From Tubulanus polymorphus (Eukaryota > Animalia > Nemertea), in NCBI RefSeq assembly GCF_964204645.1, contig NC_134030.1:15376110-15440109 (forward strand): 64,000 nucleotides of DNA, read 5' to 3'. This document shows positions 2,737 through 27,449 of the stretch, in pieces (positions within the stretch are counted from its first letter, which is position 1; each line of letters opens with the position of its first letter). A model generated the notes under the pieces. The model did not search any database, was not told the origin of the DNA, and worked only from the letters and a program-made list of their open reading frames with translations. Position numbers and translations under genes: made by a program.

Positions 2737-2752
2737 TTTTTTAATTATATAA

Positions 2753-4059: not shown

Positions 4060-4080
4060 TTTTAATTTTTTATTATGTAA

Positions 4081-5551: not shown

Positions 5552-5571
5552 TTAATTTTTTTGTTAAATAA

Positions 5572-6789
5572 ATGAGTGGGAGTAATATCAATCCTTATAA
5601 GAATCATAGAATATCTAATGCTATTAAAGCAGAAAGATCTCATCATATAATTACTCATAATCCTTCAAATATTAATCCCGATGAAACTTTATATGTTGGT
5701 ATTCCTCGATTAACACAAAAATACTTTTTATGTTCCAAATAGTATTTATTTATCAGCCGATATAAAAGTAATCGGTAATAATAATAATTATGTTGTTGAT
5801 AATGTTGGAAGATATTTGATTAAAAAATTAACAATAAAGATCGGTCCAGAAACAGTTTTCTCATTAGATGATTATAATTTATTTATGCATTATAAAGATT
5901 TATGACTAAAGAAAATAGAAATAATATGATACTTCAAGGAATCCAATCAGAAAACCAAAATAAATTAAGATCTGAAGGACATAATGCAATAATAACTAAT
6001 GCTATAGATAAATTGATAAAAAGTATATATGGAAGCAAATATAAAATTCCATTAGACTTTGAATTGATAAATAATAATGCACCTTTATATAAATACGCAA
6101 TTCAAGAAGATGTTATATTCGAAATAACATTTGCTCCTGTTAATGAAATTGTATTATCTAGCGTTGTTAAAGATATGGGATATAAATTATCGAATATATG
6201 TTTAGAATATGATACTAAATACAATCAAGGATTTTCATTATTATATGATTATATTGATAAATTTAAAACCGTAACTATTAATGCAAATGATGAAATAATT
6301 AATGAGAATATTAACTTCCCAAGAAGATCTATTAAAGGTATATTAATATTTTTTACCATTGCAACATATACTAATGGCGCAATAAATGTTGATAATTATT
6401 ATAATCCTGAAATAACAAAAGTAGAAATAACTATCGAAGGAATAGCAAATAAAATATTTTGTCAAGGAATGAGAATGATAGATCAATGGCCAGAAATTAG
6501 AAAACATTTTATGAATGAAAAAGTAAAATCATCTGAAAATTGTAATATTAATCAAATTGATTATTATACCGGTAATAAATATGCATTATGGTTAGATTTT
6601 AGAACAACAGAGGATAATTCATTACATGGTTCTGGGAAAAAACTACAGAACACTAAAGATGGAATACAATTATTCATGAAAAAGGAAAGAGGAGACTTTT
6701 TAGAGGAAAATTTTAAAATGCACATTTATATTATATCTGACGCGCAATTAAATATTGTAAATTCTCAATTAAATAGTGTTATGTATTAA
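5572..6789 (+). pseudogene. Major capsid protein, 5' part frameshifted
   Basis: Near-identical to the intact ORF at 22204-23451; TAAATG with ATG at 5572. Confidence 0.8.
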
Positions 6790-6821
6790 AATTTTAACTT
6801 TAATAAAAATTTATATGATAA

Positions 6822-7574
6822 ATGGAAGGAGGTAAAGTATATAAACATATTCCATACATCGATACACATGAAAATAATGATGGTTTATATTATGTAATAC
6901 CTTGTAATATAGCTTTGATATTTGATCCTATTTTCAAAATTTATAAAAATAAACTAATGGAAATCGATAATAATAAAAGTGGTGTTGTTGATAATTTAAG
7001 TAATGTAATTGATAATAATGTAATACCTTCTACATCTAATAATGTAATACCTTCTACATCTAATAATGTAATACCTTCTACATCTAATAATGTAATACCT
7101 TCTACATCTAATAATGTAATACCTTCTACATCTAATAATGAAATAATATTAAATATTAGTGAAAATAGAAATTATTGTGATTATTGTAAAGGTGAATTTT
7201 CAAACGTTCCATCAAATTGGAATAAACATATGAATACAAAGACACATATTACTAATGTAATAGAACGTGTTGGTTTAAGAGAATTTATAGAACACCCATT
7301 TAAATATGTTACAAAATTTGTTTCAAATAAAAAAGTAAATGGTAAAGAATTATATGAAGATTTATTATTAGCAACACCTAATAGAGATGAATTAGATTTA
7401 ACCGATGCTAATAAAATATTAGGAGCAAACACTAATAAAGATAATAATGAAAATATAGTTACAGATATTGATAATAAAGATTCTATGAAACTTAAAGTAG
7501 AAAATAATGATAAATTTGATTGGATGAATAAGCATAACAATGAAACAACTTTTAATCCATTAATAATAATTTAG
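6822..7574 (+). CDS. 250-aa protein with C2H2-like Zn finger and (NNVIPSTS)x5 repeat
   Basis: YCDYC...HMNTKTH motif; occupies the position held by integrase in the inner element. Confidence 0.65.
   Translation: MEGGKVYKHIPYIDTHENNDGLYYVIPCNIALIFDPIFKIYKNKLMEIDNNKSGVVDNLSNVIDNNVIPSTSNNVIPSTSNNVIPSTSNNVIPSTSNNVIPSTSNNEIILNISENRNYCDYCKGEFSNVPSNWNKHMNTKTHITNVIERVGLREFIEHPFKYVTKFVSNKKVNGKELYEDLLLATPNRDELDLTDANKILGANTNKDNNENIVTDIDNKDSMKLKVENNDKFDWMNKHNNETTFNPLIII
7014..7140 (+). repeat. 24-bp coding tandem repeat x5
   Basis: AATAATGTAATACCTTCTACATCT repeated exactly five times. Confidence 0.95.
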
Positions 7575-7582
7575 ATTTTGTT

Positions 7583-7927
7583 TCAATGGCTTTCAATGGC
7601 TTTATGATTTGACTTATTTTCTGGTATGATTGGTTTATTATCATTGGAATCTTTATCATGAGATTTGAATTTTGATTTATATATTACGCCGGATAATACA
7701 ATAATTGTGATTAACCCAATTGTAATATATAAGTAATTATTTCTTCCACTATTAGAAGAATTAGATGGATTATTATTTGAATTAATATCAGATAAAGTCT
7801 GTGATTCATTTATATCAGTTAATTTCTTTTTCTTAGCTTTTTTTAATTCTGAAGATCTTTTACCGAATTCTCTTGCCCATTTAATTTGTTTCTCGGATCT
7901 AACCTTTTTCTTAACGCCATCACTCAT
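7583..7927 (-). CDS. Polinton ORF I, basic N-terminus plus single TM
   Basis: RSEKQIKWAREFG matches RSQKQIEWSRQLG of 26054-26407 (opposite strand). Confidence 0.7.
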   Translation of the reverse strand: MSDGVKKKVRSEKQIKWAREFGKRSSELKKAKKKKLTDINESQTLSDINSNNNPSNSSNSGRNNYLYITIGLITIIVLSGVIYKSKFKSHDKDSNDNKPIIPENKSNHKAIESH

Positions 7928-8527
7928 TTATTTTAGTTAATTTTTGTTCTGATTCATTTTCTGTTTCGCCGTTTGGTTGTAGTACAGCGTCATCTGTTTT
8001 GTTCTTACCTGATTTATATTCCATAGGTATGATATTCGAAAATGTTATGACGCCAGTAGAAATTAATGTCATAACCGATCCTAATTGAAATGAAGCATAT
8101 CCGACCCATTTTTTAATTCAGTCATAACTAAGTAGTCATTTTTCAAATCACTATATAATTTATTTTCATCATCAATTGGTATTAACTGGTTACATAACTT
8201 AGAGTAACATTTTATAATACCATCACTTATAGAGTCGTTTATTCTAGCTAATCTAGCTTCTTCATAAATCTTAAAATATTTTATTACTTTATCGGGTTTC
8301 ATAGCATCTAATTCTTGAAAAGTTATTATTTTCCCGATAAACTGATTACATTTACCACTAGTAATTAATAATTCTAGATGGTGCTTACAATATAAATAGT
8401 ATTCATAATCAATATTACAATTAATATTATTTTCAATTTTGATTGGAATATCCTTATTATCACTAATACCTAAATCATCTAATGTTTTTTCAATATCAAT
8501 ACTATTCTTACTCGATTTCTTTGACAT
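7928..8527 (-). pseudogene. Polinton ORF H (YEYYLYCKH family), frameshifted near 3' end
   Basis: ORF 8081-8527 homologous to the broken gene at 25519-26053. Confidence 0.65.
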
Positions 8528-8772
8528 TTATATTAGAGAAATTTAATAAGAAAAATATTATAAGTATTATAAAATGATACCAGTATCTCTTTAGATTAAT
8601 ACTAGCTTAGTTAAAGGTAAATAATTTTAGTATTAGTTATTGTTTTTTAGTACTTTTTATTTGTGATATAAAGTATTCTTTTTGAAAAGAAAATATTAAA
8701 AAAACAATAACTAATACTAGCTAGTTGAAGATATGTAATTTTTAATACTTTTTATTTAAAATCTATTATTCT

Positions 8773-9438
8773 TTAACCACTCATTAAAGACTCAACGTAT
8801 TGTTCATTATTTGGATTATTGTTCCATTGATCAATAAATTTCTTTGCCTTTGTTAACTGTTCTAAATATAACTGTAAATCTAGTTTATTAGATTTGATTT
8901 GATTTTCTTTCTTTTCAAGAGGTCTTAAATTTTTCCAACCCCAAATAAGTTTTTTATTGTATTCATCATTCATGTTAAATTTAGATATTGGTAACACATG
9001 ATCAATATGGTAATAATCCCCATAATTATCTATGTTCATTTTATCGTCGAATTGAAATATAATCCATGATTTGAGAAATTCATCTGAACAACCCAACAAA
9101 TTAGATAATGTTTCTGAATGTGTTTCTTTGTTGAATAATTGTGTTAATCTAGATCTTAAGCATTGTTTCAATCTAAAATTAAGATCTGTTTGATATCTTT
9201 CTCTCATATATTCTGCCATATAATAATTATAATGTTCTATATCATCTTCTCGATATTGTTTGGTATATAGTTTAGTGCAAGTTTTGCAGCAATATTGAAA
9301 ACCATCTTTGCTAATCTTACGCTTACTAAATTCTGTAAATGGTTTATCTAATTCACATTTAGAACACTTCTTGTAGTATATATTTATAACACCAGTGTTA
9401 TTTGTAATATTGATAATTTGTGGTTGTTCTGGTTCCAT
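8773..9438 (-). CDS. Zn-finger/HNH (endonuclease VII-like) nuclease of the type common in large DNA viruses
   Basis: CSKC...CKTC Zn motif, LLGCS, HIDHVLP...WKNLRPL...N..K HNH-type core; intact 221 aa. Confidence 0.75.
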   Translation of the reverse strand: MEPEQPQIINITNNTGVINIYYKKCSKCELDKPFTEFSKRKISKDGFQYCCKTCTKLYTKQYREDDIEHYNYYMAEYMRERYQTDLNFRLKQCLRSRLTQLFNKETHSETLSNLLGCSDEFLKSWIIFQFDDKMNIDNYGDYYHIDHVLPISKFNMNDEYNKKLIWGWKNLRPLEKKENQIKSNKLDLQLYLEQLTKAKKFIDQWNNNPNNEQYVESLMSG

Positions 9439-9575
9439 TTATTATACGTATTTTTTTACTAAATTGGTTAATATTTTAGAATCCCCTTCCATTTCTTCGA
9501 CCAACGTCATCCTTTTTCATTCCTCGTTGCTTTTGATAAGTCGTTTCGATTCCTTGATATCTAAATCATACCACA

Positions 9576-9969
9576 AGGCAAAACCGCTCTTATAGCAGCG
9601 CTTTTGCTTAATGCGCATGCGCTAATCATAATTATATATTCATTCTGTAAATTCTGTAAAATAGAAACGACCGACATAAAATATCAAAACGTGTTCGCAT
9701 TAGGCAAAACCGCTCTTATAGGAGCGGTTTTGATCAATGCGCATGCGCTAATCATAATTGAAACGACTGAACATAAAATATCAAAACGTATTCGCATTAG
9801 GCAAAACCGCTCTTATAGGAGCGGTTTTGATCAATGCGCATGCGCTAATCATAATTGAAACGACTGAACATAAAATATCAAAACTTGTTCGCATTAGGCA
9901 AAACCGCTCTTATAGGAGCGGTTTTGATCAATGCGCATGCGCTTATCATAATTGAAACGACTGAACATA
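9576..9969. repeat. 97-bp tandem repeat x4 with internal hairpin and GCGCATGCGC palindrome
   Basis: Units start at 9576, 9702, 9799, 9896; CAAAACCGCTC-ttatag-GAGCGGTTTTG stem (degenerate in unit 1). Confidence 0.95.
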
Positions 9970-10684
9970 GAACATTCACCAAGTAGATTTACACAATACA
10001 TTATACAAGTATGTTCAGTCGTTTCTTCCAATACATCATTTGATTTCTATATATAAAATCTATAATTACAAACATTTTTTCAATTGCTGGTAAATATTTA
10101 ACGACATCAACAAATATTAAACTTAATCATTGGAGTCTTAATGTTTTTGAAATTCTTATATAGTTTATTCGTTGATCTTTTGTGATTCTTGTGGTTCTAC
10201 GCCAGTTTCTATTGGTTCGATATCCATTGCTGTTGATTCCTCCGTCAGAAAGAGTATCTTGAGTTTCTCTATCGCTTCTTGATGTGTGTGACGGTTTATT
10301 AATCTAAAAGATATTAGCGGCAACTCTAGCTATCTAAAAGATATACTAAATACACTTAAATATATATATAAAGGTTTCATATTTAATAGCCCTAATAACT
10401 ACAAAAAAACAGTACTCACATTTAGATTTAGAATTGAAACTATAAAATCCTAATTTCGTTTCGAGAGATAGAATATCCTAAGCGTTATGTTACAGCGTCT
10501 ATTCAGAATTCTAGAATTTTCTACGCGTTTTCAGTATTATGACTCATATGTCTCAGCGTTATAGTAACAACTGTGACAGCTGTGAATTTATAGATTTATT
10601 CCATAGCTCTTTAAATGGAATGTATATAGGCTCAAATATAATCATGCTCTAGTATAAACAGCTATGTATTATATCATGTATATA

Positions 10685-10766
10685 AGTAATTGGAAAAGTG
10701 GGGTTTCAGATCAGAGGGCGAGACACCACTCATCACCACAAGTAATTTTTTTCCCTAATAAATGGG
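10685..10766 (+). repeat. Left terminal inverted repeat
   Basis: Reverse complement of 26861-26950; includes the TAAATG start of pPolB. Confidence 0.93.
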
Positions 10767-13700
10767 GGAGAATGAACAACAGCCAGAAAATAATAATGTT
10801 AATAAAAATCAATATTATTGCACATATTGTAAAAAATACGTCGATACATCTCATAAAACACGACATGAAAAAACTGCAAATCATATAAATGTAATAGATT
10901 TTGAAACTTCAGAAAATTCCAATGAAAGAAAAGAACGATTAGAAAATATGAATGTGGATGAAATAAAATGTGAAGTTTGTAATGAATTCATAACAAAAAG
11001 GAATTATAATAGACATCTCGAATCACAAAAACACCACCAAAATTTGAGTAATAATGTTTTAGGAAAAGATTATTTTGATGATAAACCTCAAAAAGTAAAA
11101 AAAAAACAACTTCAAAAACTAAATCCATTTCAAATAAACCTTACATGGAAAATGTTAGAAATTATATTGATTCACTAGAAATAAAAGATACAATTGAAAT
11201 TTTAGAAACATTACATAGTAAAATTGGTCCTGCAGCTATTATATTTAGATTTTTTAAAGGTACAACAATAGAAGATTATAGTAAATTTAATGAAATAATA
11301 GAAAAAATACTAGATTTGATAACAGATGTTGAATATCCAAAAATTAGTATCTCTGGGAAAGTAAGTTTTATAAAGTCAGAAGAAAAAATGGATTATAATA
11401 TTCAAACACTCTCTGAAGAAATAATTTCAAAAACACAAATAAAAGAAGTTAGAAAAAATATTTAATGAATTTAAACGTCATATTGAAGAAAGATATTTTG
11501 AGGGTTCTAGCTTAACATTGAATGAAATTATATATTTAGATTTAAATGTTTACAATACAAAAAGGAATAAAACATCAAAAAGTAATAAAATGTTTAAAAA
11601 TGATTCAAACTTTACAACAGAAAAGGATATTAAAGCATCATCTTATATTAAATTACCATTTACAACAAAAGCAGTAATAAATGTTCAAAATGAAGATAAT
11701 AAATGTTTTCTATGGTCAATTATTAGTTGTTTACATCCAATACAGGAAAATGTTTGTAGAATAACAGATTATCGGAAATACGAAACATTATGTAAAATTG
11801 ATCAATATCCAGTAACTATAAAAATGATTCCTAAAATAGAAAAAGTTAATCATTTAAAAATAAATGTATTTGAATTAATGAAATTACCAAAGACAAAAGG
11901 TGAAAATATTAAAGATTATACATTGGAAGCTTTATATTTAACAGAATATTATGATGATGAAAATGCTATAGATTTGTTATATTACAAAAAAGATGAAAAT
12001 GAACATTATATGTGGTTAAAACAAATTGATTTATTCTTTAGAACAGAAAGTGATCACCATCATAAAATTTATCTATGTAGAAAATTTTTATCTAAATTTA
12101 TGACTGAGAATACATTATTAAAACATAAAGAATTATGTGATAATAAAGATTTTTGTAAATTAATAATGCCAACAGGAAAAAGATTATAAATTGAAATTTA
12201 CTAATCATAAATTTAAAAATATTGTTCCATTTGTAATTTATGGGGATTTTGAATCGTTGAATAAAGAATTAACTGATCAAGATAGAAAAGAAATATATAA
12301 CAAAAAGCAATTATTAAAATCAATGGATAAAGGAAATGAATTAAATGAAGACACAATACAAGACCCACCAATTATAAATACAATTAAAAAAGTTCATCAA
12401 AGAGCTGCTGGTTATGGAATTTATATAAAATCAAATTATCCCGAATTATATGAAAGTCAATATATTTCTTTAAGAGGTGAAGATGTAGTTAATGATTTTT
12501 GTGACAAAATGATTGAATTAGAAAGTGATTTTGCAAAATTATTAAACAAAAATAAAAGAATAGTTATGACAAAAGAAGATGAAATTGATTTTAATTATGC
12601 AACTCATTGTTGTTATTGTGAAAAACGTTTTTATTCATTTGATAAAAAAGTTAGAGATCATGATCATTTCAATTCAAAATATCGTGGAGCTGCTCATGAA
12701 GATTGCAATTTACAAGCTAAGAAAGTTAATTTCGTACCAATATTATTTCATAATTTATCAGGCTATGATACCCATCTATTTATAAAACAATTATCAAAGA
12801 ATTTGGGTACAATTAATCAAGAAATAGAAGAATATAATGCTATGAATGGTGTAAATGTAAGAAAATATGATATTATTATCCAAATGACCAAGATTTTAAA
12901 TTATTGAGATATAAAGGCGCAATTCCTTATTCATTTTATAAAACACACAATGATTTTAATGTAACAGAATTATTAAAAGATCAATTTTATGATCAATTAA
13001 AAGAGGAGTATGTGAAAGACGAAGTGTTTAATAGAACATTAAATACTTGGAACCATTTTAAGATGAAAAATCATGGCGAATTAGTTGATTTATATTTAAA
13101 ATCAGATGTTATGATATTAGCTGACATATTTGAAAAATTTAGAGAAGTTAATTTGAATCATTTTAATGTTGATCCTTGTTATTGCTACTCTAGTCCTGGT
13201 TTAACCTGGCAATGTGGTTTAAAATATACAAATGTAGAATTAGATTTATTAAAAGAACCAGATATGGTTCTATTATTTGAAAAATCAATTAGAGGTGGAA
13301 TTAGTGGTGTTATGGGAGATAGATATTTTAAAGCAAATGATGAATATAAATTATTATATATTGATGCCAATAATTTATATGGTTGGGCAATGATACAAAC
13401 CCAACCATACAAAAATTTTATATTAACAGAAGTTGAAAATGATAACAAAACTGATTGGGAAAGCGCAATTGCGAGTTTAAAAGATGAAGCACCAATTGGT
13501 TATTTCTTTGTAGTTGATTTAGAATATCCTGAAAATATAAAGTTTAAAACAAGAAACTTACCTTATTGCCCAGAACATTTAACTGTATATGATAGTTATT
13601 TAAGTGAATACCAGAAGAAAATAAAACCGAAAGATCATGTTTTTACAGAAAAATTAATACTTACTCAAAATAATAAATACAATTATATCGTTCATTATAG

Positions 13701-15690
13701 AATGTTAAAATTTTATCTAAAACAAGGAATGAAATTAAAGAAAGTACATAGATATATTGAATTTAATCAATCGAAGTGGTTAGAAAAATATATAGATTTC
13801 AATACTCAACAGAGAACAATATCAAAAACAGATTTTGAAAAAGATTTCTTCAAATTAATGAACAATAGTTTTTATGGTAAAACATGTGAAAATATTAGAA
13901 ATAGAAATGATATTGAATTAGTAAATAATTCTGAAAGATTAAGACATTTACAATCAAGTCCTAGACATTTAGGAAATAAAAGATTTGAAGATTATTTAAC
14001 AGCAGCTATTAAATTAAAAAGAACGTCAATGAAATTTAATAAACCTATATTCATTGGTTCAACTGTTTTAGAAGTATCAAAATTATTAATGTATGATTTT
14101 TATTATAATGTTTTACAACCACTTTTTGGGGAAAAGCATATTGAAATATTATACTTTGATTCTGTAACAGCTGACACCCCAATATTATTAAAATGTAATA
14201 ATAAAATATTGATAAGAAGAATTTCAGAAATAATTCCAAAACAAAATGAATGTTATATTTCATATGGTGAAAAAGAATTAATACAAATAAATGGTTTAAT
14301 GGATGTTTGGACAAGAAATGGATGGAAAATATTAAAGAATATTATTAGGCATAAAACAAATAAGAAAATCTATAGAGTTAGAACTAAATTAGGGTTTGTA
14401 GATGTTACAGAAGATCATAGTTTAATTACACGAAATGGCGATGAAATAAAACCAACTGATATAAAAATTGGAGATGAATTATTACATAAAAGATTTTTCC
14501 AAAGAATGAATCATATGTCATTTGATGAAATAATTGATAATATTTATAACATAGAACCCGAAACATTAGAAGAAAAAGAATATTTTATCAAAGGATTTTT
14601 CATGGGAGATGGTTCAGCAGGTGTGTATAATTATGTTAATCGCACTCAATATTGCTGGTATTTATGCAATCAAGACTTAAAATTATTAGAAAGAATAAAG
14701 AAATTCTGTGAAGAAGTTTATCCAAATAAAACATTTAAAATCATAGATGTTATGAAATCATCGCAATGTTATAGAATACATGTGAATAATCCTAAAGATT
14801 TTGCTATAAAATATAATGACGAATTCTATATTCATGCAATAGTGAAAAGTAATACTTCAACTAAAGAAAAGATAGTTCCAGATTATGTATTAAATGCAAA
14901 AAATAATTTAAGAAAATGGTTCTTCATTGGATTCTACGCAGCAGATGGTACTAAAAGTTTCAAAAACCGCAAAACAATATCTTTAGCTCAAAAAGGAAAA
15001 GTTGCTATATCAGGATTGAATATATTATGCAATTCATTAGGTTTTAATATGAATATTGGATTGATTAAATCTAAACCAAATTGCTTTAATTTAAGCCATG
15101 TAGAAAATGAGTTAACAGAAGAAGTTAAGGATTTATTTGAAATATATAACCCATCAGATTATGTTTATGATTTATCAACTGAAGATGGTACATTTAACTG
15201 TGGATTTCCATTAATAGCAGTCAATACTGACGCCTACATACTAAAAATCAAGACAAATGATATAACAAAAGACTTAAAAACATTAAAACATCATTTTGAT
15301 TTTAGCAATTATCCCAAAGATCATGAACTATTTAGCAATGATAATAAAAAGATTCCTGGTAAGTTTAAAGATGAATTAGGGGGTGATGAAATGATTGAAT
15401 TTGTTGGGATAAGAAGTAAAATGTATAGTTATAGAACAAAAGATCATGAAGCTAAAAAGTTATAAGGAATAACAAAACATGTGGTTGATAAACATATGGA
15501 ATTTCAAGATTATATAAAGTGTTTATATAAATCAATTGTAATGAAACACAAAATGAATTGTTTAAGATCAGAAGATCACGAGATGTACATTAATGTACAT
15601 TAATTAAGTTGAAAAACTAGTTTAAATCCATTTGATGATAAAAGGCATATTTTAGATGATGGAATAAAACGATTACCTTATGGTCATTAA
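10762..15690 (+). pseudogene. polB: Protein-primed family B DNA polymerase (N-terminal Zn fingers, vOTU-like region, EndoVII-like Zn module, exonuclease, polymerase) with intein; several frameshifts/stops
   Basis: NEDNKCFLWS...HY; YGDFES (ExoI); VRDHDH...YRGAAH..CN; FHNLSGYD (ExoII); YLKSDV (ExoIII); SIRGG; YIDANNLYG (A); KLMNNSFYGK (B); YFD/TD (C); KMY; terminal PYGH. Confidence 0.95.
14161..15225 (+). mobile_element. 355-aa intein with LAGLIDADG homing endonuclease in pPolB motif C
   Basis: YFD|SVTADTPILL...VTEDHSL (block B)...IKGFFMGDG...FIGFYAADG...YVYDLST (block F)...IAVN|TDA; removing it restores YFDTDA. Confidence 0.93.
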
Positions 15691-16332
15691 AACATAAAAT
15701 CAATATCATCATACTCGAAATCACTATTGGCTTCTTCATTTTCATTTAATTGTTTAGGTTCTTCTTCCATTTCATTTTTCTATTAAAACAAAGTTCTATC
15801 TTGTTCCACATTTCATCTCGCTCTGTTTGTTTGTTAATTCATCAAATGGAATTATAATATCTTATAAATTACAATCTTATTTAAAAAGAATTCATAATTT
15901 ATTGAATCTGTTATTCTATTTTCCAAATGATACATTAATATTTGTTTGAATATTTTTTTTATATTTTTCATATCTTCTTCTGTTAATTTAGATTTTTCAT
16001 AATAATCGTTAAATAATAAATATAAATACATTTTCTTTTGTTTTGTGTTAAATGTTGACGGAATAATTGTTTTTATAATATCTTTTTTAGTTATTTCACC
16101 ATTTTTATTTTCTATTATTTTCATTTTTTCAAGCCATTGCATATATTCTGGTGTATGATCTTCTATAGAAAATATTTTAAAAATTTCATCTAGATAATTT
16201 AATTTTGGATCTATGAGAAAATTTCTAGTTTTTTCTTCACTCCATAAATTCTTTTGCCATCCACATTCACTACAAAATAACACAGTACCTTCTTGTCTTA
16301 AGGTCGCATAACTACATTGTGGACATTTTCAT
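15687..16332 (-). pseudogene. Poxvirus late transcription factor VLTF3 (A2)-like protein, frameshifted
   Basis: Reconstructed MKCPQC..(11)..FCSEC Zn ribbon; KLTEEDMKNIKKIFKQILMYHLENRITDSINYEFFLNKI resembles, from memory, the vaccinia A2 segment ending TINYSFFLDKI; core ORF 15852-16283. Confidence 0.78.
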
Positions 16333-16985
16333 TTATAATTTATTGGTAATAGATCTTCATTGAGCTCTTGGTATTTTCTTACGTTTTCTTTATGTTTTCT
16401 TGTTCTATTATGTAGATTTGAATTACTTGTTGTAATAATCAATTTACAATATTTACAATAATATGTTTTTCTTGTTAATTCATTATATTGTTTTTCTAAC
16501 TTTTCAACTGTTTCTTTGTTATCTGGTAACGTTTTCTCATATTTTATTTTTTCTAATAAATTATGTTTTCTTTCGTTGAATTCAGTTTCAAATTTATTAG
16601 AAATTTTATCTATATGTGCGTTACGAAATTGATGATTCTCCCAATCTTCTATATTTTCAGGGCTATATTTTACTTGACAAGGCTCACAGATATGATCTTT
16701 TATATTATCCTTATCATAGAATAAGAAAGGTCTTTTCCAAATACCTTCAGGTTCAACTTCAACAGAATTACTATTACTTTCATAACTATCAACATTAGCC
16801 GTTGCGCCATTAATTTTACACTTCTCTGAATGTTTTTTAACATAATTTCTTGAGAATAATTTATTACATTTTGGGCAGTTTAGTTTAGGGGGTTTATAAT
16901 TTTCATCATGTTTTTTCATATGTCGAGCCATATTACTTTTTCTTAGAAGTTCACCACAAATTTCGCATGCTATCTTCTCATCCAT
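16329..16985 (-). CDS. Multi-zinc-finger protein, 218 aa
   Basis: CEIC..HMKKH, CPKC..H...C, CEPC..H....H, CKYC..HNRTRKH; its stop overlaps the VLTF3-like start (TAAATGA). Confidence 0.75.
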   Translation of the reverse strand: MDEKIACEICGELLRKSNMARHMKKHDENYKPPKLNCPKCNKLFSRNYVKKHSEKCKINGATANVDSYESNSNSVEVEPEGIWKRPFLFYDKDNIKDHICEPCQVKYSPENIEDWENHQFRNAHIDKISNKFETEFNERKHNLLEKIKYEKTLPDNKETVEKLEKQYNELTRKTYYCKYCKLIITTSNSNLHNRTRKHKENVRKYQELNEDLLPINYK

Positions 16986-17053
16986 TTATTAAGGAAAAAT
17001 TTTATTAAAATTAATTTTTAGTGACGAGCGGTAATTTTTTTATGTTATAAATA

Positions 17054-17810
17054 ATGGTAGAATTAAAAGAATACAGAATATTTGTTGATTCTAGAAAACT
17101 TACAAATTATAAAACTCATAATTTACTAGTACAATTAGATAGGGAATATAAAAATTGTGTAGATTTAAAATTAGTAAATATAATTTTATGTAATTCTTTT
17201 TATAATGTATCGGATAAAAGTCTAGAACATTTAATTTTTCAATCTTTTACAAAAAAAGGAATAAATGGTTTTTTTATATTTAAAACCAGGATTATATAAT
17301 TTAGATACATTAGCACAAGAAATTAATAGAAAAGCTCGAGCTAAATTAGGAAGTGATTCCGGATTTAGTATTAGAATTTTAAAAAGTGATAGTTCTAATA
17401 AAATAAAGATTAGGTTAGCTAATGACGAACAATTTAAATTTACAGTAAGAAAACCTTTAGGTAAACTGTTTGGAATTAACCCAGATATTGTTACAGCATA
17501 CGCAGAAGGTAGATCAAACTTAATACCTTTTACACATTTTTATATTTATTGCAATTTGATCGACCCAACAAAAACATTTGAAGCAACTAAAGATACAATT
17601 TGTAATTCTGGTTTATTAAATATTTTACCATTAAAAAATGTCAAACAATTTGGAACTCAAATAAATTATAATTTAACTGAATGTGATTTCAAACCTTGTA
17701 TTCCACATTTCAATAATTTTAAATTAGAAATAAGACATCATAATGGTTATTTAATTGATTTGAATAACTTTCCTGTAATTTATGAATTAGTTATAAGATG
17801 TAAAGAGTAA
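17054..17810 (+). pseudogene. Minor capsid protein (penton), one frameshift
   Basis: PGLYN, YIYCNLID, LLNILP, LEIRHHNGYLIDLNNFP..YEL pattern typical of Polinton pentons; ORFs 17054-17299 and 17265-17810. Confidence 0.75.
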
Positions 17811-17826
17811 TTTTTTCATTATATAA

Positions 17827-18186
17827 ATGAATATAACTGTTGGACCGAGTATATGTTTTGGATTTGATTTTAAACGTGAGAAAGAAATGAAATTTAACAT
17901 TAATGATGTAATTACACATATCAAAAATATTGCATTTTCTAATGAAACAACATTTGAGTATGAAAGAACAATAGATAAAGAAACTTTAAATGTAGAAAAG
18001 ATTACTAATTTAATTAGAGAATCTTTAAGATTTTATGAATTAGATGAAGATTTTATCATAGATGATATTAAAAACATATTAACCAAAATATATGATAATC
18101 ATAAAAGTAGTAATGAAATAAATGTTGAATTAATCATAAATAAGATAACGAAATATTTTGATGATAGTAATTTTTTTGATAAATAA
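17827..18186 (+). CDS. Polinton ORF A
   Basis: Paralog of 1283-1639. Confidence 0.7.
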   Translation: MNITVGPSICFGFDFKREKEMKFNINDVITHIKNIAFSNETTFEYERTIDKETLNVEKITNLIRESLRFYELDEDFIIDDIKNILTKIYDNHKSSNEINVELIINKITKYFDDSNFFDK

Positions 18187-18412
18187 ATGAGTGATAATAA
18201 GTGGATAATAACTGGATTATATAATGGAGCATTACTATTAGTTTGAACTGTTTAAAAATTTATAAAAAGTATTAAAAAAAGTATTCAAAATGGGAAGTTT
18301 TAATGTTGATAGATTTGATATAAATGATATCTTAAAATTAACGTTAGCAGTTACTTTATCTAATTTAACTATTGATTATTTAGAAAAACAAAAATATATT
18401 CCTCCCATATAA
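18187..18412 (+). pseudogene. Polinton ORF B, disrupted
   Basis: Aligns to 1640-1861; premature TGA near 18244. Confidence 0.65.
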
Positions 18413-18436
18413 ATGCGTAATTATTTTACTAAATAA

Positions 18437-18859
18437 ATGGCTTCTGCAATTAAAACTATTATAGGATCGGCAATTGTTAACGCTTTGGCATTTACTGGTG
18501 GTGGATATTTATTTAAACATATTGATAAAAATAGTTCATTAGGAGAACAAAGAAGACATATTTTAGCGTCAGAGAAATACAATAAAGCTGCAGAAGAATA
18601 TAGAGAAAAGAGACAAAACTATATGGATTACATCAATAAAGAATTATATGATCAGAAGATTTCACATAGAGATTTTCAATCAGTTGATGATGCAATGAGT
18701 TTATATAACGCGGTAACCAATAAAGAAAAATTACATCTATACAAACCTAAATTATCAGATTATTATACCCCAAGTAATGAACAACAGAAATATGAAATAA
18801 TTTGGATTTTAGGTGGAACAGTTATTGTTATATTTGTTGCTTATAAGTTTACTAATTAG
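18437..18859 (+). CDS. Polinton ORF C, 140-aa membrane protein
   Basis: Paralog of 549 and 1886 ORFs. Confidence 0.75.
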   Translation: MASAIKTIIGSAIVNALAFTGGGYLFKHIDKNSSLGEQRRHILASEKYNKAAEEYREKRQNYMDYINKELYDQKISHRDFQSVDDAMSLYNAVTNKEKLHLYKPKLSDYYTPSNEQQKYEIIWILGGTVIVIFVAYKFTN

Positions 18860-18878
18860 TAATTTTTTTTCTAAATAA

Positions 18879-19310
18879 ATGGAAGATAAAGTTGATAATA
18901 TTGATATTATTCCTCATGATATAAATAAAACTAAATTAAAAACATATTTAGAAAAACAAATATTAGAATTTGAAAGTGACTTAAAGATAAAAAAGAAAAA
19001 ATATTTATAAAGTAAAATTATATATCTTATTATCAGTGGTTCGGTTACAATTAGTTCTGTAATAACATTTCTAGCAATATTCAGTCCATTAACACCTTTA
19101 GCTATATCAATTGGTGTGTGAGGATTAAGTTCAAGTGTTTTAACTGGTATAAGTTCAAAATTAAACATAAAAAGTAATAAAGAAAAAATTAAAACTAATA
19201 TAAAAGAAATTAATAAATTAAAGAACACACTAGATTTAAAAATAGGTTTAAATGGTCATATAACAGTTGAAGAACAAGATAAATTATTAAAAGAATTAAT
19301 AAATTATTAA
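18879..19310 (+). pseudogene. Polinton ORF D, two-TM protein with in-frame stops
   Basis: TAAATG-GAAGAT start; aligns to 992-1092 and 2312-2736. Confidence 0.65.
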
Positions 19311-19326
19311 TTTTTTAATTATATAA

Positions 19327-20708
19327 ATGGTAGATAGTTTTCCAAAAGCTTTCCAATATAATAAATCAATTAAATATAATATTCCAGCAATAGATTTTAA
19401 TAAAGATATTACATATAGAAATGAAGTTTTAAATTCATTAATTGATTTAGAAATTTATGTTACTGAAACTAATAATTTTAATGCAAAGATGGAAAATATA
19501 TTTCATGTATATTTAATTAATTTTAAAAAATTGAAAGATGAAAAACAATGGTTATTAAAATCTAATATGAAGTATTGGCAGAACCAATTAAATTTTGCTG
19601 TTTATTGTGCAACAACAGGTTGTGGAATTAGTTGGAATGATCATTTGAATAATTCTAAATATAAATTAATTCAAAGTGTATTTAGATTTCATACATACTT
19701 TCAAATCAGAATAATATTAAATGAATTAGAGTGTGCTTTACCAGGATCTAGATATTTTAAAGAATTAGATAATAATATTAATTTATCAAAGTTTTATAAA
19801 ATTTGTAATGAATTTAATATAGATATAAAAAATTCTGATTTTAGAACAAAAATTGGAACAATAAGATCACTTCCTTGCCCTAGAAAGATTGCAGAATATT
19901 GTGCACTTCCCATACCATCTAATACTTTTTATAATAACTATAATAATAAATTAGGTTATGGTAAAATAGAAACAAAGGATTTAGAAACATTAAATTTCAA
20001 TAAATTACCGACTTTTTATGATAATTTAAAACAAGAAAACAATAATGGTTGGGTTTATTTCATTTTAGAAAATAATGAAGGTTTTACAAAATCAGGTATA
20101 CAAAGAATAAATCAATCTATTAGAACTTATTTGATATGTATTCTAGGTGCACAAGTTGAAAAAAGATCACCGATAATTGGAAATTTGAATACATCATTCG
20201 ATACACAAAAACAATTTAAAGTTTTATTTGAAGATTCCATACATAATGATAAAAATAGATCGATTCCAGACAACATTGTAAGATATCGAAATTATTTAGA
20301 TAAATCACATATTAGATTAAATTATTGTATAGGCCCTTATCTATTAATTATTTCTAATGATTTAGTATTAAAGATGGGAAATATAATTGGTTATAATAAT
20401 CTAATTAAAACTGCAACAATAAATAATTCATTTGGATTGAATGATATAGATAAAAAGATAATTACTGCTCCAAAATTAATGGAAGGTGAAAAAAATTAAA
20501 AACATATTCAATCAACTGAAACTAAAACTAATAATATTAAATTAAATAATGATTCTAAAATAAAAGATTATAATACATCAGAAGATATTAAAACTGATAT
20601 TATTCAACATGATATGATTAAAACTAATGATGATAATAAATCCCATGAAAATGCTAAATTAGCTTTAACTTGTATAGGAATTGTTATAGGAGGAATATTA
20701 TATTTTAA
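19327..20708 (+). pseudogene. Polinton ORF E, frameshift near 20495 separates the C-terminal TM
   Basis: 390-aa ORF 19327-20499 plus tail ending GIVIGGILYF. Confidence 0.75.
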
Positions 20709-20731
20709 ATTTTAATTTTTTTATTATATAA

Positions 20732-22162
20732 ATGGATGTAGAAGGTGGAGAAGATATTGGAATGGATAATTTTGATGAACCTGGTATAACTGATGAACAA
20801 CCACCTGATTTTGATGAAACAAGTTTTAATGATGGTAATGAGCCAGAATATAATAATAATTTGAATATACCTGATTATATTAAAAATGCGGAATCACAAT
20901 TAAATCCTGAAAATTTAGACCCAGATTTAGTAAAACAAGATTTAGATAATTTAAACAAAATACCTAAATTAGAAGATTTAATTGAAAAATCTAAACTTAA
21001 CATAAATGATGAAGACGTTGGACTTTTAGCAGATCAATTAAAATTTTTAGATAATGGTAAATGTTATTATCGTTTGAAAGATGATTATTATATTGATATC
21101 ACTTATTAAAAAAAAATAATAACAAAATGAACTTTGAGAAAATTAGATCCAGATAGAATTAAAAGAATAAGTAATAGTAATGTAATAACTGATGTTATAA
21201 AACAAGAATTAACTGATAATGATATAGACGTATTTAAACAAAGAATTAATGAATTATTTGAAATAATCAAAAAGAAATCAGAAACAGAAACAAGTTCTGA
21301 ACAGAATATAACTTCCAAAACTAGTAAACTTAAATCAAATAAAGTTTCAATTGAAAAACTTTTACCGAATGGATTAATTGATGCAACAGATCAACAATTA
21401 GAAGATTTAAATAATATATTTTCTGTTGAAGCAATTAGAGAAATTAAAAGTATAAGGCTTGCATCTGATGAAATTGCGCATGATAAAAGTATAAGAGATT
21501 TAAAAGTTAGAACTTTAGAAGATGAATTATTTAAATCAAGAAAAGAATCGGAACAACTAAAATTAGATTGAAGTTATTGAAGAAATTGAATTTAAAAAAA
21601 GAAATGCATATTTAGAAAAAGATGTTGATGATTTTAGAATATAACATAGAATTACAAAAAGAAGAAATTAAATTATTATTAAAATCATATGATTATAATA
21701 TTAATAGATTAAAAGTTATTTTTAAAGATTTATTGATAAAACCAAATTCTAAAATATCATTGAAAGATAGAATAAAGTTATTATTTAAATTAGAAGGAAT
21801 AACAATTCTTTCAATTCTAACAGCTGTAACTATGTTATTTACAACAATTGGTTTAGCAATATCAAATGCTTTTAAATCTACTCCTACTCTAAATAAACCG
21901 GATAAACCCCCGAATGATAATAATTCTATACAAGATAAAGTTAAAGATGGTTTAAAGAAATTAGCAAAATATTTATGGGAACTATCTAAAAATTATCTGC
22001 TGCAGCTTCACCAGGAATTATTGCATCAATTGTTGGTTTTATATTGAAATCTGCTGGGAATATTCTTAACTTTGCTGCTGAACATATTATTTTATTTTTA
22101 ATTACAGTTGTAAGTGCTATTATTTTTGGGTTAGTGAATATGATATCAAAAAATATCAAGTA
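20732..22162 (+). pseudogene. Polinton ORF G, fragmented
   Basis: ORFs 20732-21109, 21134-21571 and 21622-22047 collinear with 4081-5551. Confidence 0.7.
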
Positions 22163-22203
22163 AACATGATTAAAAATAAATAATTAATTTTTTTGTTAAA
22201 TAA

Positions 22204-23451
22204 ATGAGTGGGAGTTATATAAGTCCTTCTAAGATTTCTAGAATATCTAATGCTATTAAAGCAGAAAGATCACATCATATTATTACTCATAATCCTTCAA
22301 ATATTAATCCCGATGAAACTTTATATGTTAGAATCCCTCGATTAACACAAAATACTTTTTATGTTCCAAATAGTATTTATTTATCAGCTGATATAAAAGT
22401 AATTGGTCATGATAATAATTATGTTGTTGATAATGTTGGAAGATATTTGATTAAAAAATTAACTATAAAGATTGGTCCAGAAACAGTTTTCTCATTAGAT
22501 GATTATAATTTATTTATGCATTATAAAGATTTATGGTTAACTAAAGAAAATAGAAATAATATGATATTTCAGGGTATTCAATCGGAAAACCATAATAAAT
22601 TAAGATCAGGAGCTAATGACGCAATAGTAACTCGTGCCACAGATAATTTGATTAAAAAGATTTATGGAAGCAAATATAAAATTCCATTAGATTTTGAATT
22701 GATAAAAAATAATGCACCTTTATATAAATACGCAATTCAAGAAGATATTATATTTGAGATAACATTTGCTCCTGTAAATGAAATTGTATTATCTAGCGTT
22801 GTTAAAGATATGGGTTATAAATTATCGAATATATGTTTAGAATATGACACAGTAACTAATGAAAATATTGCTAGCACAATTCAAACTCAATACAATCAAG
22901 GATTTTCATTATTATATGATTATATTGATAAATTTAAAACTGTAACTATTAATGCAAATGATGAAATCATTAATGAGAATATTAACTTCCCAAGAAGATC
23001 TATTAAAGGTATATTAATATTTTTTACCATTGCAACATATTCTAATGGCGCAATAAAGGTAGATAATTATTATAATCCTGAAATAACAAAAGTAGAAATA
23101 ACCATTGAAGGAATAGCAAATAAAATATTTTGTCAAGGAATGAGATTGATAGATCAGTGGCCAGAAATTAGAAAACATTTTATGAATGAAAAAGTAAAAT
23201 CATTTGAAAATTGTAATATTAATCAAATTGATTATTATACCGGCAATAAATATGCATTATGGTTAGATTTTAGAACAACAGAGGATAATTCATTACATGG
23301 TTCTGGGAAAAAACTACAGAACACTAAAGATGGAATACAATTATTCATGAAAAAGAAAAGAGGAGACAAAAATTTTAAAATGCATATTTATATTATATCT
23401 GATGCACAATTAAATATTGTAAATTCACAATTAGATAGTATTCAATATTAG
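22204..23451 (+). CDS. Double jelly-roll major capsid protein, intact 415 aa
   Basis: Size, position next to integrase/ATPase, and motifs ITHNPS, N.GR..IKKL, YKDLW, RSIKGILIFF, KYALWLDFRT...LHGSG, DAQLNI recognised from invertebrate Polinton MCPs. Confidence 0.82.
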   Translation: MSGSYISPSKISRISNAIKAERSHHIITHNPSNINPDETLYVRIPRLTQNTFYVPNSIYLSADIKVIGHDNNYVVDNVGRYLIKKLTIKIGPETVFSLDDYNLFMHYKDLWLTKENRNNMIFQGIQSENHNKLRSGANDAIVTRATDNLIKKIYGSKYKIPLDFELIKNNAPLYKYAIQEDIIFEITFAPVNEIVLSSVVKDMGYKLSNICLEYDTVTNENIASTIQTQYNQGFSLLYDYIDKFKTVTINANDEIINENINFPRRSIKGILIFFTIATYSNGAIKVDNYYNPEITKVEITIEGIANKIFCQGMRLIDQWPEIRKHFMNEKVKSFENCNINQIDYYTGNKYALWLDFRTTEDNSLHGSGKKLQNTKDGIQLFMKKKRGDKNFKMHIYIISDAQLNIVNSQLDSIQY

Positions 23452-23481
23452 AAATATAAAGTTAAAATTAAGGATATATAA

Positions 23482-24610
23482 ATGGGTGGTAAAAAAAACT
23501 CCTAATACTAAAGAACAATATTTAAGAAATTTATATTACAACCCTGAGAGTTCGGTTGCTTATTCTTCTACCAAAAATATATGGCGTCAAGTGAAACAAG
23601 ATAAATTAGATAAGATAATCCCACAAAATTTAGTTAAATATAAAGATATAAATGAATTTAAGTTAGAACAACCAACATACACAACACATAAAAAAATTGT
23701 TAGAAAATATAAAACTCGTAAAACTATGGTAAGTTATGTAGATCAACAGTGGCAAGGAGATTTAATTGATATGAAAAATGTTAAGAAAGATAATGATGAT
23801 TATTGGTGGTTATTGAATATAATTGATATTTCAGTCGTTATGTATGGAGTTTCCCACTTTATAGAAAAGATGCTGTACAAACATCAAATGTTTTAAGAAA
23901 ATTTCTTTCGGATGATAAACTAAAACCAGAAAAAAATACAATTTGATGATGGAAAAGAGTTTGATAATTCACTTGTTCATGAACTCTTAGGTAATCATAA
24001 TATTAAATATTTTTCAACAAAATCGGATAAAAAAGCAGCAGTTGTTGAACGATTTAATAGAACATTAAGAACAAGAATGTGGAAATATTTTACAGCAAAT
24101 AATACTTTTAAATGGATTGATGTTTTACCAAAATTGATAGAAGGATATGATAATTCTTATCATTCTTCTATTGGAATGAAACCTATTGATGCTAGAAAAC
24201 CTGAAAATGCTGAAATTGTTTGGAATAATTTATATGGTGCATTTCTTGTAGATGATTTTGGTGAACCTAAATTTAAAGTTGGTCAAAATGTTAGAATATC
24301 TAAGTATAAAAAGATATTTGACAAAGGATACGATCGAAATTTTACTAGGGAAATATATAAAATAAAAAAGGTAATAACAACAAAACCATATGTCTATAAA
24401 TTAGAAGATTTAGATGGTGAAGAAGTTGATGGCTACTTTTACGAAGAAGAATTAAGTTTAACTACTGAAAATCTAGAACAAGAATATAAAATTGAAAAAG
24501 TATTAAAAACAAAAACTATTAAAAGAAAAAAATATTCTTTAGTAAAATGGGTTGGATGGCCAGATAAATTTAATGAATGGATATTATCGAGTAAAATTAA
24601 AAATATATAA
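23482..24610 (+). pseudogene. Retroviral-like (c-)integrase with C-terminal chromodomain, frameshifted
   Basis: LYYNP, WQGDLIDM, QFDDGKEF, KAAVVERFNRTL, YDNSYHSSIGMKP, chromodomain YKIEKVL...LVKWVGWPDKFNEWI. Confidence 0.92.
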
Positions 24611-25214
24611 ATGAATAAGGAATTATTTATATTTGAGCCTCATAATATGTTAATATCTGGCGTAACAAATTTTGGAAAAACTTATTTTATATTAAATTTA
24701 TTAGAAACTGTTTATGAAAACTATTTTGATAATATAGTATTATTTTGCCCAACATATGAATTTAATCAAACTTATGATAGAAATATTACTAGAAATAATA
24801 AATTTATTATATTAGATCCTAAAACAGTAAAAGAAAATTTAGATAATTGTATAAAAATAGCAATTGATATTTATAAAGGATCAAATACATAATTTATCAT
24901 AGATGATTGCGCAAATTTACATGATTCAAAGAGAAAGTGAGTTATGTTATCTAGCTTTCTCTGGGAGACATTTTGGGATAACAACATGGGTTTTAAATCA
25001 AAAATATAATTCAATTGTTAAAGACTTTAGAGAAAACATTAGATTTCTAGTTTTATTCGACAATAAAGATAGAAAATCGATGAAAAATGCACTTGAGGAA
25101 AATGATATTATTCCACATGATTTACATAATGAATATATGGATAAGTTGAAAAATATTAAAAGATCAAAATTACTATTTAGATTACAACACCCATTTAAAT
25201 ATGAATTTATTTAA
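24611..25214 (+). pseudogene. A32/FtsK-HerA family DNA packaging ATPase, stop plus frameshift
   Basis: Walker A GVTNFGKT, Walker B FIIDDC just after the stop at 24890, SGRH arginine finger, LNQ motif. Confidence 0.88.
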
Positions 25215-25216
25215 AT

Positions 25217-25490
25217 TCAACTAGCTTGTTAATCTAGTTGAATTCTAGTTACATTCTAGTTGAATTCTAGTTATTGGTAGTTGTAACAAAAATCAACTAG
25301 ATTTAACAATATTTTAACTAGCTTGTTAATCTAGTTTAATTCTAGTTACATTCTAGTTGAATTCTAGTTGTTAGTAGTTGAAACAAAAATCAGCTAGATT
25401 TAACAAGAAATAAACAAAAACAACAATATTTCAACTAGCTTGTTAATCTAGTTGAATTCTAGTTACATTCTAGTTGAATTCTAGTTGCAA
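25217..25490. repeat. Intergenic CTAG-rich repeat x3 built from 11-bp subunits
   Basis: AACTAGCTTGTTAATCTAGTT(G/T)AATTCTAGTTACATTCTAGTTGAATTCTAGTT at 25219, 25316, 25433. Confidence 0.92.
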
Positions 25491-25518
25491 CATCACAACT
25501 AATTTTTTTGTTATATAA

Positions 25519-26053
25519 ATGGTAGGTGAAAAGAAAGTAAAAACTAAAAATGGTGATGTTCCAATTGAAAAAACTTAAGATGATTTAGGAATAACAGAAA
25601 CAAAATTAACTCCAGATGATGGTGCTTTAAATAATGTTACAACAAATAATAATTATGAATATTATCTTTATTGTAAACATCAATTAGAAATATTAATAGC
25701 ATCTGGAAAATGTAAAAATTTTGTCGGTAAAAATTTAACTTATAATGAATTAGATACAATGAAATCAGATGAAATTATTAGATTATTTAAGATTTATGAA
25801 GCCGCGAGAACAGCTAGAATTAATGACGCGATATCAGAAAATGTAGTAAAAGGTTATAGTAAATTATGTAATTATACTACCAATTGAAGATGAAAATAGA
25901 TTATATTCCGATTTAAAAATGATTATTTAGTTATGACTGAATTAAATAAATGGATTGGATATTTATCATTTCAATTAGGTGGATTTATGACATTATTATC
26001 AACTGGGGTTATAACATTTTCAAATATTGAAAGTAAAAATATTTCTATAATAA
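25519..26053 (+). pseudogene. Polinton ORF H, disrupted
   Basis: YEYYLYCKHQLEILI.SGKC matches 8081-8527. Confidence 0.65.
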
Positions 26054-26407: not shown

Positions 26408-26568
26408 TATTTTAGAAAAAAAGCAAAAAAATAATTTTTTTTTAATTAATTGAATATTAATTGAATATCTCACTACATTTGTCTATCTATGCGGAGCAAT
26501 TAAATTGTCCAGATAAGTTATTTCGGATTCTTAATATTCATTATTTTTATTAATTTATTTTTTTTAAA

Positions 26569-26865
26569 TTAATCAACAATTTCTAAATCATGATGGCCAT
26601 CTTCATGGCAATCTTTTAATTCCTCTGTACTCAATGAAACCCATTTATCAGGTAAAAATACTTTAAATTCTCGCGATGTACTAACATTACAGTAGCTTGA
26701 ATTAGCTGATACTTTCTCTCCATATTTAGTTTTTATCTTTTCTAATTTCAATATTTTATGTTCAATTTCTTTTGTAACATCAACTAACTTTTTTATTTCA
26801 AATTGTTTTTTTGCTGGTTTTATTCTGTTATTTATTGTTGCTAAGAATGCTTTTCTATCTCCCAT
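26569..26865 (-). CDS. 98-aa hypothetical protein starting inside the right TIR
   Basis: TAAATG start supplied by the TIR. Confidence 0.6.
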   Translation of the reverse strand: MGDRKAFLATINNRIKPAKKQFEIKKLVDVTKEIEHKILKLEKIKTKYGEKVSANSSYCNVSTSREFKVFLPDKWVSLSTEELKDCHEDGHHDLEIVD

Positions 26866-26950
26866 TTATTAGGAAAATAAATTACTTGTGGTGATGAGTG
26901 GTGTCTCGCCCTCTCGCCCTCTGATCTGAAACCCCACTTTTCCAATTACT
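26861..26950 (-). repeat. Right terminal inverted repeat
   Basis: Reverse complement of 10685-10766 with a short CTCGCCCT duplication. Confidence 0.93.
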
Positions 26951-27159
26951 TATATATGAATTATTTCAATCATACTTTACTAACACTTTTAATGTTTAAA
27001 AATCTAACTCGTACAAATATAAATATTGAAATAATGTTTAAAATATATCTATATATCTATTCTATAAGAGCTCGTTAATTACTGGTTACTTTTAGATCGA
27101 ATAATCTATCAATTTATATGTTATTCATGTAAATTATGTTTATTTATGAATATTTTAAG

Positions 27160-27352: not shown

Positions 27353-27449
27353 CGCGTTAACTAAACATTTTTGAACAGAACGGTTGAAGATGAGTGTATA
27401 GATCAATAGAATGCATCATATTTTGAAATAAAATGAAAAAGTGTCAGTT

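Follow-up and report, generated by a model that had tools for sequence, protein, structure and literature searches.

A window of 64,000 nucleotides from Tubulanus polymorphus (contig NC_134030.1, positions 15,376,110 to 15,440,109; "the window" denotes this whole stretch) contains a decayed Polinton of 16.3 kb, bounded by inverted repeats at 10679-10769 and 26858-26956, in which a multi-zinc-finger part is joined to a homolog of the poxvirus late transcription factor A2/VLTF3. The fusion gene is dead in this copy, and the genes of the element start at a motif of the poxvirus late type. We give an even chance to the reading that, in active relatives, the fusion protein joins the complex with which a co-infecting pox-like virus transcribes its late genes, and steers it to the genes of the element. 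More tentatively, one lineage of animal Polintons may be virophages that are integrated in their hosts and parasitize an undiscovered pox-like virus, with every gene on a poxvirus late promoter and with a finger-armed A2/VLTF3 of their own that hijacks the helper late complex.

The VLTF3 domain could be compared with few relatives. A phmmer search of 1.84 billion representatives returned only two matches, P0001 (697 amino acids [aa], 47%) and P0002 (446 aa, 36%), and two largely intact Polintons (L001 and L002) carry the same genes as the window, at 33-100% identity per piece. On the minus strand of the window, a single frame holds the KCPQC...FCSECG ribbon, which starts at 16328, together with IFKQIL (15953) and SINYEFFLNKI (15905). 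ERDEMWNKI (15823) is in a frame that differs from that of the zinc ribbon. The motifs listed in the earlier note were all recovered, the last of them out of frame as described there. The comparison set comprised 37 chordopoxvirus A2 loci, of which Pfam confirmed the 2 that were checked, and 120 loci that carry the NFLSYSYVLYK motif; 36 pox and 74 Megaviricetes distinct proteins were kept after proteins of less than 230 aa had been dropped, and these were thinned to 16 and 19 for a 38-row alignment, the profile scores and a tree.

The homology of the domain to VLTF3, which the earlier note had proposed, is secure. When three Polinton domains were aligned by hhalign with 12 pox A2 proteins, the match ran from end to end (97.4%, E = 1.4e-11, 190 columns, score 77); with 24 Megaviricetes sequences the values were 96.3%, E = 1.7e-9 and score 68, while the pox and Megaviricetes sets matched each other at only 6.7%. 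The four cysteines of the zinc ribbon and an F, a Y and an L of the C-terminal region were invariant throughout the 38-row alignment, as the C4 ribbon and the C-terminal Y-x-x-x-L motif of VLTF3 require. A chordopoxvirus A2 profile gave 28 bits on the window piece; none of 294 scored shuffles exceeded 7 bits, and the reversed sequence scored -2. In the ESM Atlas, PF04947 clusters made up 27 of 30 matches for the window piece (0.93; recognition value of 1819, graded weak by the tool) and also 27 of 30 for the P0002 domain (0.95). Structure prediction had been suggested as a check, and the best named Foldseek matches of a model of the L001 domain (pLDDT of 87) were VLTF3 structures, although this model is not independent, having been folded from an alignment that contained pox and Megaviricetes VLTF3 rows; a single-sequence fold of P0002 was unusable (pLDDT of 36). 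TFIIB was rejected as a candidate: the Foldseek probability to TFIIB chains was at most 0.09, with a TM score of about 0.15, and the cyclin-fold repeats were not found. Sequence and fold searches of the PDB gave nothing significant for the VLTF3 domain, a further search returned zinc fingers only, and no solved A2 structure was found.

Within the VLTF3 family, the Polinton form probably sides with the poxviruses, as far as profile scores and the predicted structure indicate. The pox profile gave 25 to 28 bits on the three Polinton domains (shuffle maxima, 6 to 9), compared to 2.5 to 7 bits for the Megaviricetes profile. In the reverse direction, a Polinton profile scored 16 pox A2 proteins at 40 to 55 bits and 19 Megaviricetes proteins at 0 to 25 bits. 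The pox and Polinton domains also have in common a shorter loop before the NY motif. Among the Foldseek matches of the L001 model, entomopoxvirus VLTF3 ranked 1, cowpox virus 2, entomopoxvirus MSV065 6 and African swine fever virus (ASFV) B385R 28. The better fit to pox A2 than to the NFLSYSYVL form, which the earlier note had claimed, is thus upheld by the profile scores and by the Foldseek ranks.

On the evidence of its relatives, the zinc-finger part and the VLTF3 domain are one gene, not two. The zinc-ribbon frame is that of the upstream 218-aa zinc-finger open reading frame (ORF; 16985-16329), and a single in-frame stop at 16329-16331 lies between them. Fingers and ribbon domain share one ORF in P0001, in its cluster members P0004 and P0005, and in P0002, and the residue spacing across the junction is the same in P0001 and in the window. 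The family-B DNA polymerase (PolB) of L001 has an N-terminal finger to which the last of the fingers preceding the VLTF3 domain is 41% identical. Compared with intact P0001, the last residues of the C terminus, about 40 in number, are scattered among the three reading frames from about 15865 to 15790, and the gene therefore carries one stop and at least two frameshifts, where the earlier note had assumed a single frameshift. The window copy is a pseudogene. U1-type zinc fingers occur in three genes of these elements (10762-11178, 6822-7574 and 16332-16985).

The earlier note had instead read the domain as a separate gene, translationally coupled to the zinc-finger gene upstream. In favor of a stand-alone A2-like gene starting at 16332, a TAAATG is found at 16335-16330, and the junction could also have reached its state through a single event. 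However, the ATG at 16332 does not lie in the frame of the domain, all relatives are fused with the spacing of P0001 unchanged, and the TAAATG lacks the T-run of true promoters (score of -3.9, rank 25 of 89 sites). Reads from the host speak against it as well: in a whole-genome shotgun run (X5), about 12% of which was read, 161 of the 181 reads over the stop codon differ from the window within the codon, and among the rows listed no length difference falls at the junction. Largely refuted in this way, the stand-alone gene is very improbable.

The same reads also bear on further copies in the host. A total of 5076 X5 reads, mostly 90-99% alike, fell on 15400-17400, at a depth of about 150 to 320 over the fusion gene; given this depth and divergence, the host carries many diverged copies. 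Length differences clustered where the frames shift. The break is specific to the window copy. At the borders of the fusion gene, 261 reads (at 15665) and 342 reads (at 17053) ran off into other sequence, and the depth was higher just outside both borders. Other copies likely have different cargo in the slot that PolB and the minor capsid gene flank, and the run-off within this one 2-kb stretch suggests that the fusion gene is optional or accessory cargo. Beyond the phmmer matches, a word-indexed search with the window piece or with the three-sequence domain alignment found no relatives, and one with the P0002 domain returned P0002 itself as the sole match. Scans of IMG/VR with P0002, the window piece, A1 and the capsid gave no relatives, nor did scans of GTDB, and tblastn against phages gave only weak matches in Streptococcus and Pseudomonas phages, none of them relatives. 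All matches of one further search were chordopoxvirus loci.

The second line of evidence comes from the gene starts of the element. Among ORFs of at least 100 aa, TAAATG overlaps the start in 12/13 cases in L002 (the exception comes from inside the split integrase) and in 2/2 in L001. In the window, the counts were 9/13 and 9/16; of the 11 misses, 10 are internal fragments of genes that are broken and 1 is an antisense ORF, and one of the window starts counted, at 17265, is incidental. By comparison, 1 of 21 flanking ORFs starts in this way, and TAA precedes about 8% of the ATGs that occur anywhere in the elements. For position counts and a matrix, 14 different gene starts were picked by hand from L001 and L002. 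An A at -18, a T at -13 and an A at -4 were invariant in all 14 starts, and T was found at -14 and at -12 in 13 of them. When the window was scanned on both strands with the matrix, the top 23 scores all fell on listed gene starts (one of these, 23482, being listed by position only). A T at -13 was present at 23/27 listed window starts and at 15/62 other TAAATG sites (p = 9e-8).

These features correspond to a known signal. The vaccinia late promoter has TAAAT, usually followed by G, on the start codon and a conserved T ten bases upstream among other Ts (PMC11980589), and intermediate promoters are described in the same source as lacking the conserved upstream T. In the elements, TAAAT(G) overlaps the start, a conserved T stands ten bases upstream, and position -13 is the same base as the conserved T of vaccinia. 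The element-wide gene-start motif matches the published vaccinia late-promoter consensus. TAAATG starts were found for 153/375 ORFs in those of 33 pox loci with a GC content below 40%, compared to 9/124 in 80 Megaviricetes loci. Published late motifs of other large viruses are different, being TATATA in asfarviruses (PMC11788076) and distinct from the TAAATG signature in Mimivirus and Cafeteria roenbergensis virus (CroV) (PMC5294985, PMC11788076). Divergent and terminal genes, which lack an upstream neighbor, have the motif as well. That TAAATG merely results from tight gene packing was rejected: the ATPase gene is the only one in L002 whose start comes immediately after the stop of the gene before it, and most starts are set off by spacers or face away from the neighboring gene.

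Several points weigh against a pox-like VLTF3 and a pox-type promoter. Pfam, NCBIfam and PHROGs gave no VLTF3 match for the window piece or its relatives, and the gathering cut-offs of PF04947 and PF08792 were reached neither by the window piece nor by P0001 or P0002 (pox controls, 160 bits); the Pfam search suggested in the earlier note was negative, and the profile match came from hhalign. The Foldseek result is not independent, because pox and Megaviricetes rows were in the alignment behind the model, and the E-values of its top 11 matches span less than 100-fold. With the C-terminal motif masked, the pox scores dropped to 5 to 12 bits, near the shuffle maxima of 6 to 9, so the advantage of the pox profile rests largely on this motif, and the Megaviricetes set was picked by its own NFLSYSYVLYK motif. 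Scores and Foldseek favor pox; the phylogeny that had been proposed as a check, a VLTF3 tree of only three groups, is a three-way split with branches of 3.6 to 7.8 changes per site and leaves the domain unplaced. This tree was built without entomopoxvirus, asfarvirus, egovirus, mriyavirus or other Polinton sequences; entomopoxviruses are missing because a pattern scan for their genomes gave the same chordopoxvirus genomes again. As to the promoter, the matrix check in the window is not fully independent, since the window genes are orthologous to the training genes, and several starts have TATA just before TAAATG, which recalls the late TATATA of asfarviruses. Finally, no helper virus was seen, and how a cytoplasmic polymerase would gain access to an integrated copy is unexplained.

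If the signature is taken at face value, a mechanism can be proposed. Polinton-like viruses have been found in occlusion bodies of entomopoxviruses and proposed to be their hyperparasites (PMC11296320), and all mavirus genes carry the late promoter of CroV (PMC6723459). None of the ORFs scanned in the element encodes an RNA polymerase that was recognized, and by analogy with mavirus it would use the enzyme and the late factors of its helper, starting at TAAAT as in vaccinia. Since its own promoter is of the late type, the fusion gene would first need the late factors of the helper and could act only as a positive-feedback amplifier, not as a trigger. In vaccinia, late mRNAs begin inside TAAAT and acquire a poly(A) leader at the 5' end; this would account for the tolerance of a T at -3, where it is a poor Kozak base. 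The added fingers might supply nucleic-acid binding and so bias the complex to the DNA of the element, and a loss of late transcription by the helper would be a side effect of this steering. The fusion gene would be accessory because many host copies are without it at this slot. That the protein could redirect or jam a late complex of the helper had been suggested earlier from the domain; the element-wide promoter lends this idea independent support, but the window copy, being broken, cannot act.

The evidence may also be read in other ways, of which we weighed three. In one of them the dependence on a helper is the same, but the fusion protein is a decoy that binds late factors or polymerase of the helper, jams late transcription and protects the host population as virophages do. 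With only about 20% identity to pox A2 and with bulky N-terminal fingers it could indeed be a nonproductive partner, and the gene is accessory, as the reads running off at 15665 (261) and 17053 (342) suggest. A general block would, however, silence the element as well, since its own genes are on the same late promoter, and the zinc-ribbon cysteines and the C-terminal motif have been kept in all relatives; we consider a decoy rather unlikely. If the helper is instead real but not a poxvirus (asfar-like, egovirus-like or unsampled) and uses a similar late promoter, the pox likeness of VLTF3 would reflect shared ancestry or long branches. The close profile-profile scores (77 for pox and 68 for Megaviricetes) and the three-way split of the tree would fit this, as would the bipartite structure that asfarvirus late promoters share with those of poxviruses (PMC5294985). 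Such a helper is nevertheless quite unlikely in view of the Foldseek rank of ASFV B385R, the deviating late motifs of asfarviruses, Mimivirus and CroV, and the difference in TAAATG starts between pox and Megaviricetes loci.

The third reading does without a helper: the element would be an autonomous nuclear one, and its motif would be read by host RNA polymerase II (Pol II) or an unrecognized system, or would serve in translation or as a signal for 3' ends. The VLTF3 fusion would then be captured cargo or a partner of host factors. In favor of this reading are an integrase with a chromodomain, a PolB of its own and many copies in the host, and 7 of the 14 starts contain AATAAA while the other 7 contain TATAAA. 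Yet a TATA box or poly(A) signal that touches the ATG is unworkable under Pol II rules, and a T at -3 is a poor Kozak base. The position of the T is, moreover, exactly as in vaccinia, the motif extends to divergent and terminal genes, and it is nearly confined to the element (1 of 21 flanking ORFs). We therefore regard an autonomous element as unlikely, and recruitment of a pox-like late complex by the intact fusion protein is the reading that we carry forward.

Compared with known systems, the Polinton domain resembles poxvirus A2/VLTF3 (PF04947 plus PF08792; NCVOG0262) in its C4 zinc ribbon, its colinear helical domain, its C-terminal Trp helix and its [TS]-[IVL]-N-Y-x-F-[FY]-L motif at the same loop length. 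It differs in that it is about 20% identical, falls below the Pfam cut-off and is fused behind four zinc fingers. In addition, A2 of vaccinia is an intermediate gene (PMC11980589), whereas the Polinton fusion has a late-type promoter in an element without an RNA polymerase. The earlier note had overrated the novelty of a VLTF3 in a Polinton, because such genes have been published for stony-coral polintoviruses (PMC11131425, citing Krupovic and Koonin 2016), for MELD viruses (PMC8502044) and for Zephyrvirus VC123/VC126 (bioRxiv 10.64898/2026.06.19.733378); VLTF2 and VLTF3 are still termed diagnostic of Nucleocytoviricota (PMC11253617). In these Polintons and Polinton-like viruses VLTF3 is likewise patchy cargo of a capsid-encoding element of 15 to 25 kb, but a zinc-finger fusion, a pox affinity and a promoter motif are not mentioned in the descriptions by which they were compared. 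Mavirus with CroV, Sputnik with Mimivirus and Gezel-14T with PgV (bioRxiv 10.1101/2022.07.28.501842) likewise pair a small integrating double-stranded DNA virus with gene starts that carry the promoter motif of a large virus; here, the motif is poxviral, the host is probably an animal, the element brings its own late factor, and dependence on a helper is proposed. The Polinton-like viruses associated with entomopoxviruses (Barth et al. 2024, PMC11296320) are Maverick-Polinton relatives, proposed as poxvirus hyperparasites, but the main text of that report contains neither "promoter" nor "VLTF" nor "transcription factor".

No poxvirus late promoter in Polintons is reported in the titles and abstract openings of the papers listed by searches of a library that lacks most subscription journals, and the supplements of the coral and entomopoxvirus papers may bear on the matter. 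VLTF3 in Polintons is known; what looks new is its fusion to fingers, its pox-like form and the use of a poxvirus late promoter throughout the element. The match to this promoter allows direct tests of the way in which animal Polintons are transcribed and of their need for a helper virus. If the proposed reading is true, a pox-like virus is predicted in this host, the promoter motif would be a sequence marker by which animal Polintons can be assigned to helper viruses, and the element would be a heritable defense against poxviruses. A finger-fused VLTF3 encoded by a parasite would then be a new way of taking over the transcription of a large virus and would provide a handle on the function of A2.

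Coordinates of the fusion gene and of the surrounding Polinton in the window.
Feature	Position	Strand	Remarks
Broken multi-zinc-finger::VLTF3 fusion gene	15687..16985	-	Single gene in intact relatives; intact L001 protein spans 16982-15864 by tblastn, in one frame
N-terminal part of fusion gene, two C2H2-type and two further zinc fingers (one U1-type)	16332..16985	-	Pfam zf-U1, 2e-07; zf-C2H2, 6.6e-05
In-frame stop within fusion gene	16329..16331	-	
VLTF3 domain, C4 zinc ribbon and helical domain, ending at NYxFFL motif	15855..16328	-	
C-terminal VLTF3 residues over three frames	15790..15865	-	At least 2 frameshifts
Poxvirus-late-type promoter of fusion gene, A/T-run followed by TAAATG overlapping the start	16983..17010	-	Matrix score of 19.1, within the top 23 of the window
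Left terminal inverted repeat	10679..10769	+	89% over 99 nt to right arm; includes whole promoter and start codon of PolB
Right terminal inverted repeat	26858..26956	-	Includes whole promoter and start codon of a 98-aa ORF
PolB, presumed, in at least 6 pieces, with intein	10762..15684	+	58-83% identical to L001 PolB
Putative minor capsid gene, broken	17054..17810	+	60% identical to L002 counterpart
Major capsid protein	22204..23451	+	Weak Pfam Capsid_N, 0.0096; 76% identical to L002 counterpart
Retroviral-type integrase with chromodomain, broken	23482..24610	+	rve, 1.5e-10 in L002 counterpart
A32-like packaging ATPase, broken	24611..25214	+	Pfam Pox_A32, 5.1e-06

The element around the fusion gene has the terminal inverted repeats of a Polinton/Maverick, with integrase (rve) and A32 ATPase recognized by Pfam and the capsid protein recognized weakly. 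The gene which we take to be PolB had no Pfam DNA_pol_B match and was named from the motifs that we recognized in it; "minor capsid" is likewise a presumptive name for a gene that had no match in Pfam. PolB, integrase, ATPase and others are broken besides the fusion gene, and the element is therefore a fossil. No match to an adenoviral-type cysteine protease was obtained in the 25 ORFs of the window and the 11 ORFs of the relatives that were scanned, several of which have no assignment, and Rfam gave no match in 9000-28000. The fusion gene lies tail to tail with PolB, as it does in L001 and L002, and head to head with the block of capsid, integrase and ATPase genes. In L002, the PolB-VLTF3 block is at the opposite end of the structural block compared to the window. 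Beyond the end of the L001 element, at 6400-6508, lies what we take, from its motif, to be a RhoGAP-like exon, and this suggests that L001 is also integrated in a eukaryote.

Further observations concern individual genes and the flanks. A deoxynucleoside kinase gene (PF01712, 1.7e-31) lies head to head with the zinc-finger-VLTF3 gene of L002 (9287-9928, minus strand). The PolB intein contains a LAGLIDADG domain (14203-15210, plus strand; Pfam, 8.8e-07 and 2.9e-06) and is absent from the PolB of L001; at 15477, 168 X5 reads depart from the window. Positions 1-9500 are taken up by another Polinton copy, likewise decayed and cut by the start of the window, whose structural block shares about 90% identity with that of the element described above. 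The promoter motif recurs in this copy, which also contains an internal duplication, an HNH-like ORF (8773-9438, minus strand) and, within the ORF at 6822-7574, a 24-nt tandem repeat. Between both Polintons, at 9548-9975, a 97-nt unit is present in three to four copies. An inverted repeat with 66-nt arms that are 92% complementary is located just outside the right terminal repeat (27159-27353) and is weakly similar to the end of L001. In the flank, judging from the translations, we assume a Gypsy-like long terminal repeat (LTR) retrotransposon with 99% identical direct repeats at 32845-40919, a reverse-transcriptase fragment at 48966-49934 and, at 59491-63047, an LTR element with an env-like ORF, all of which suggest that the host is an animal.

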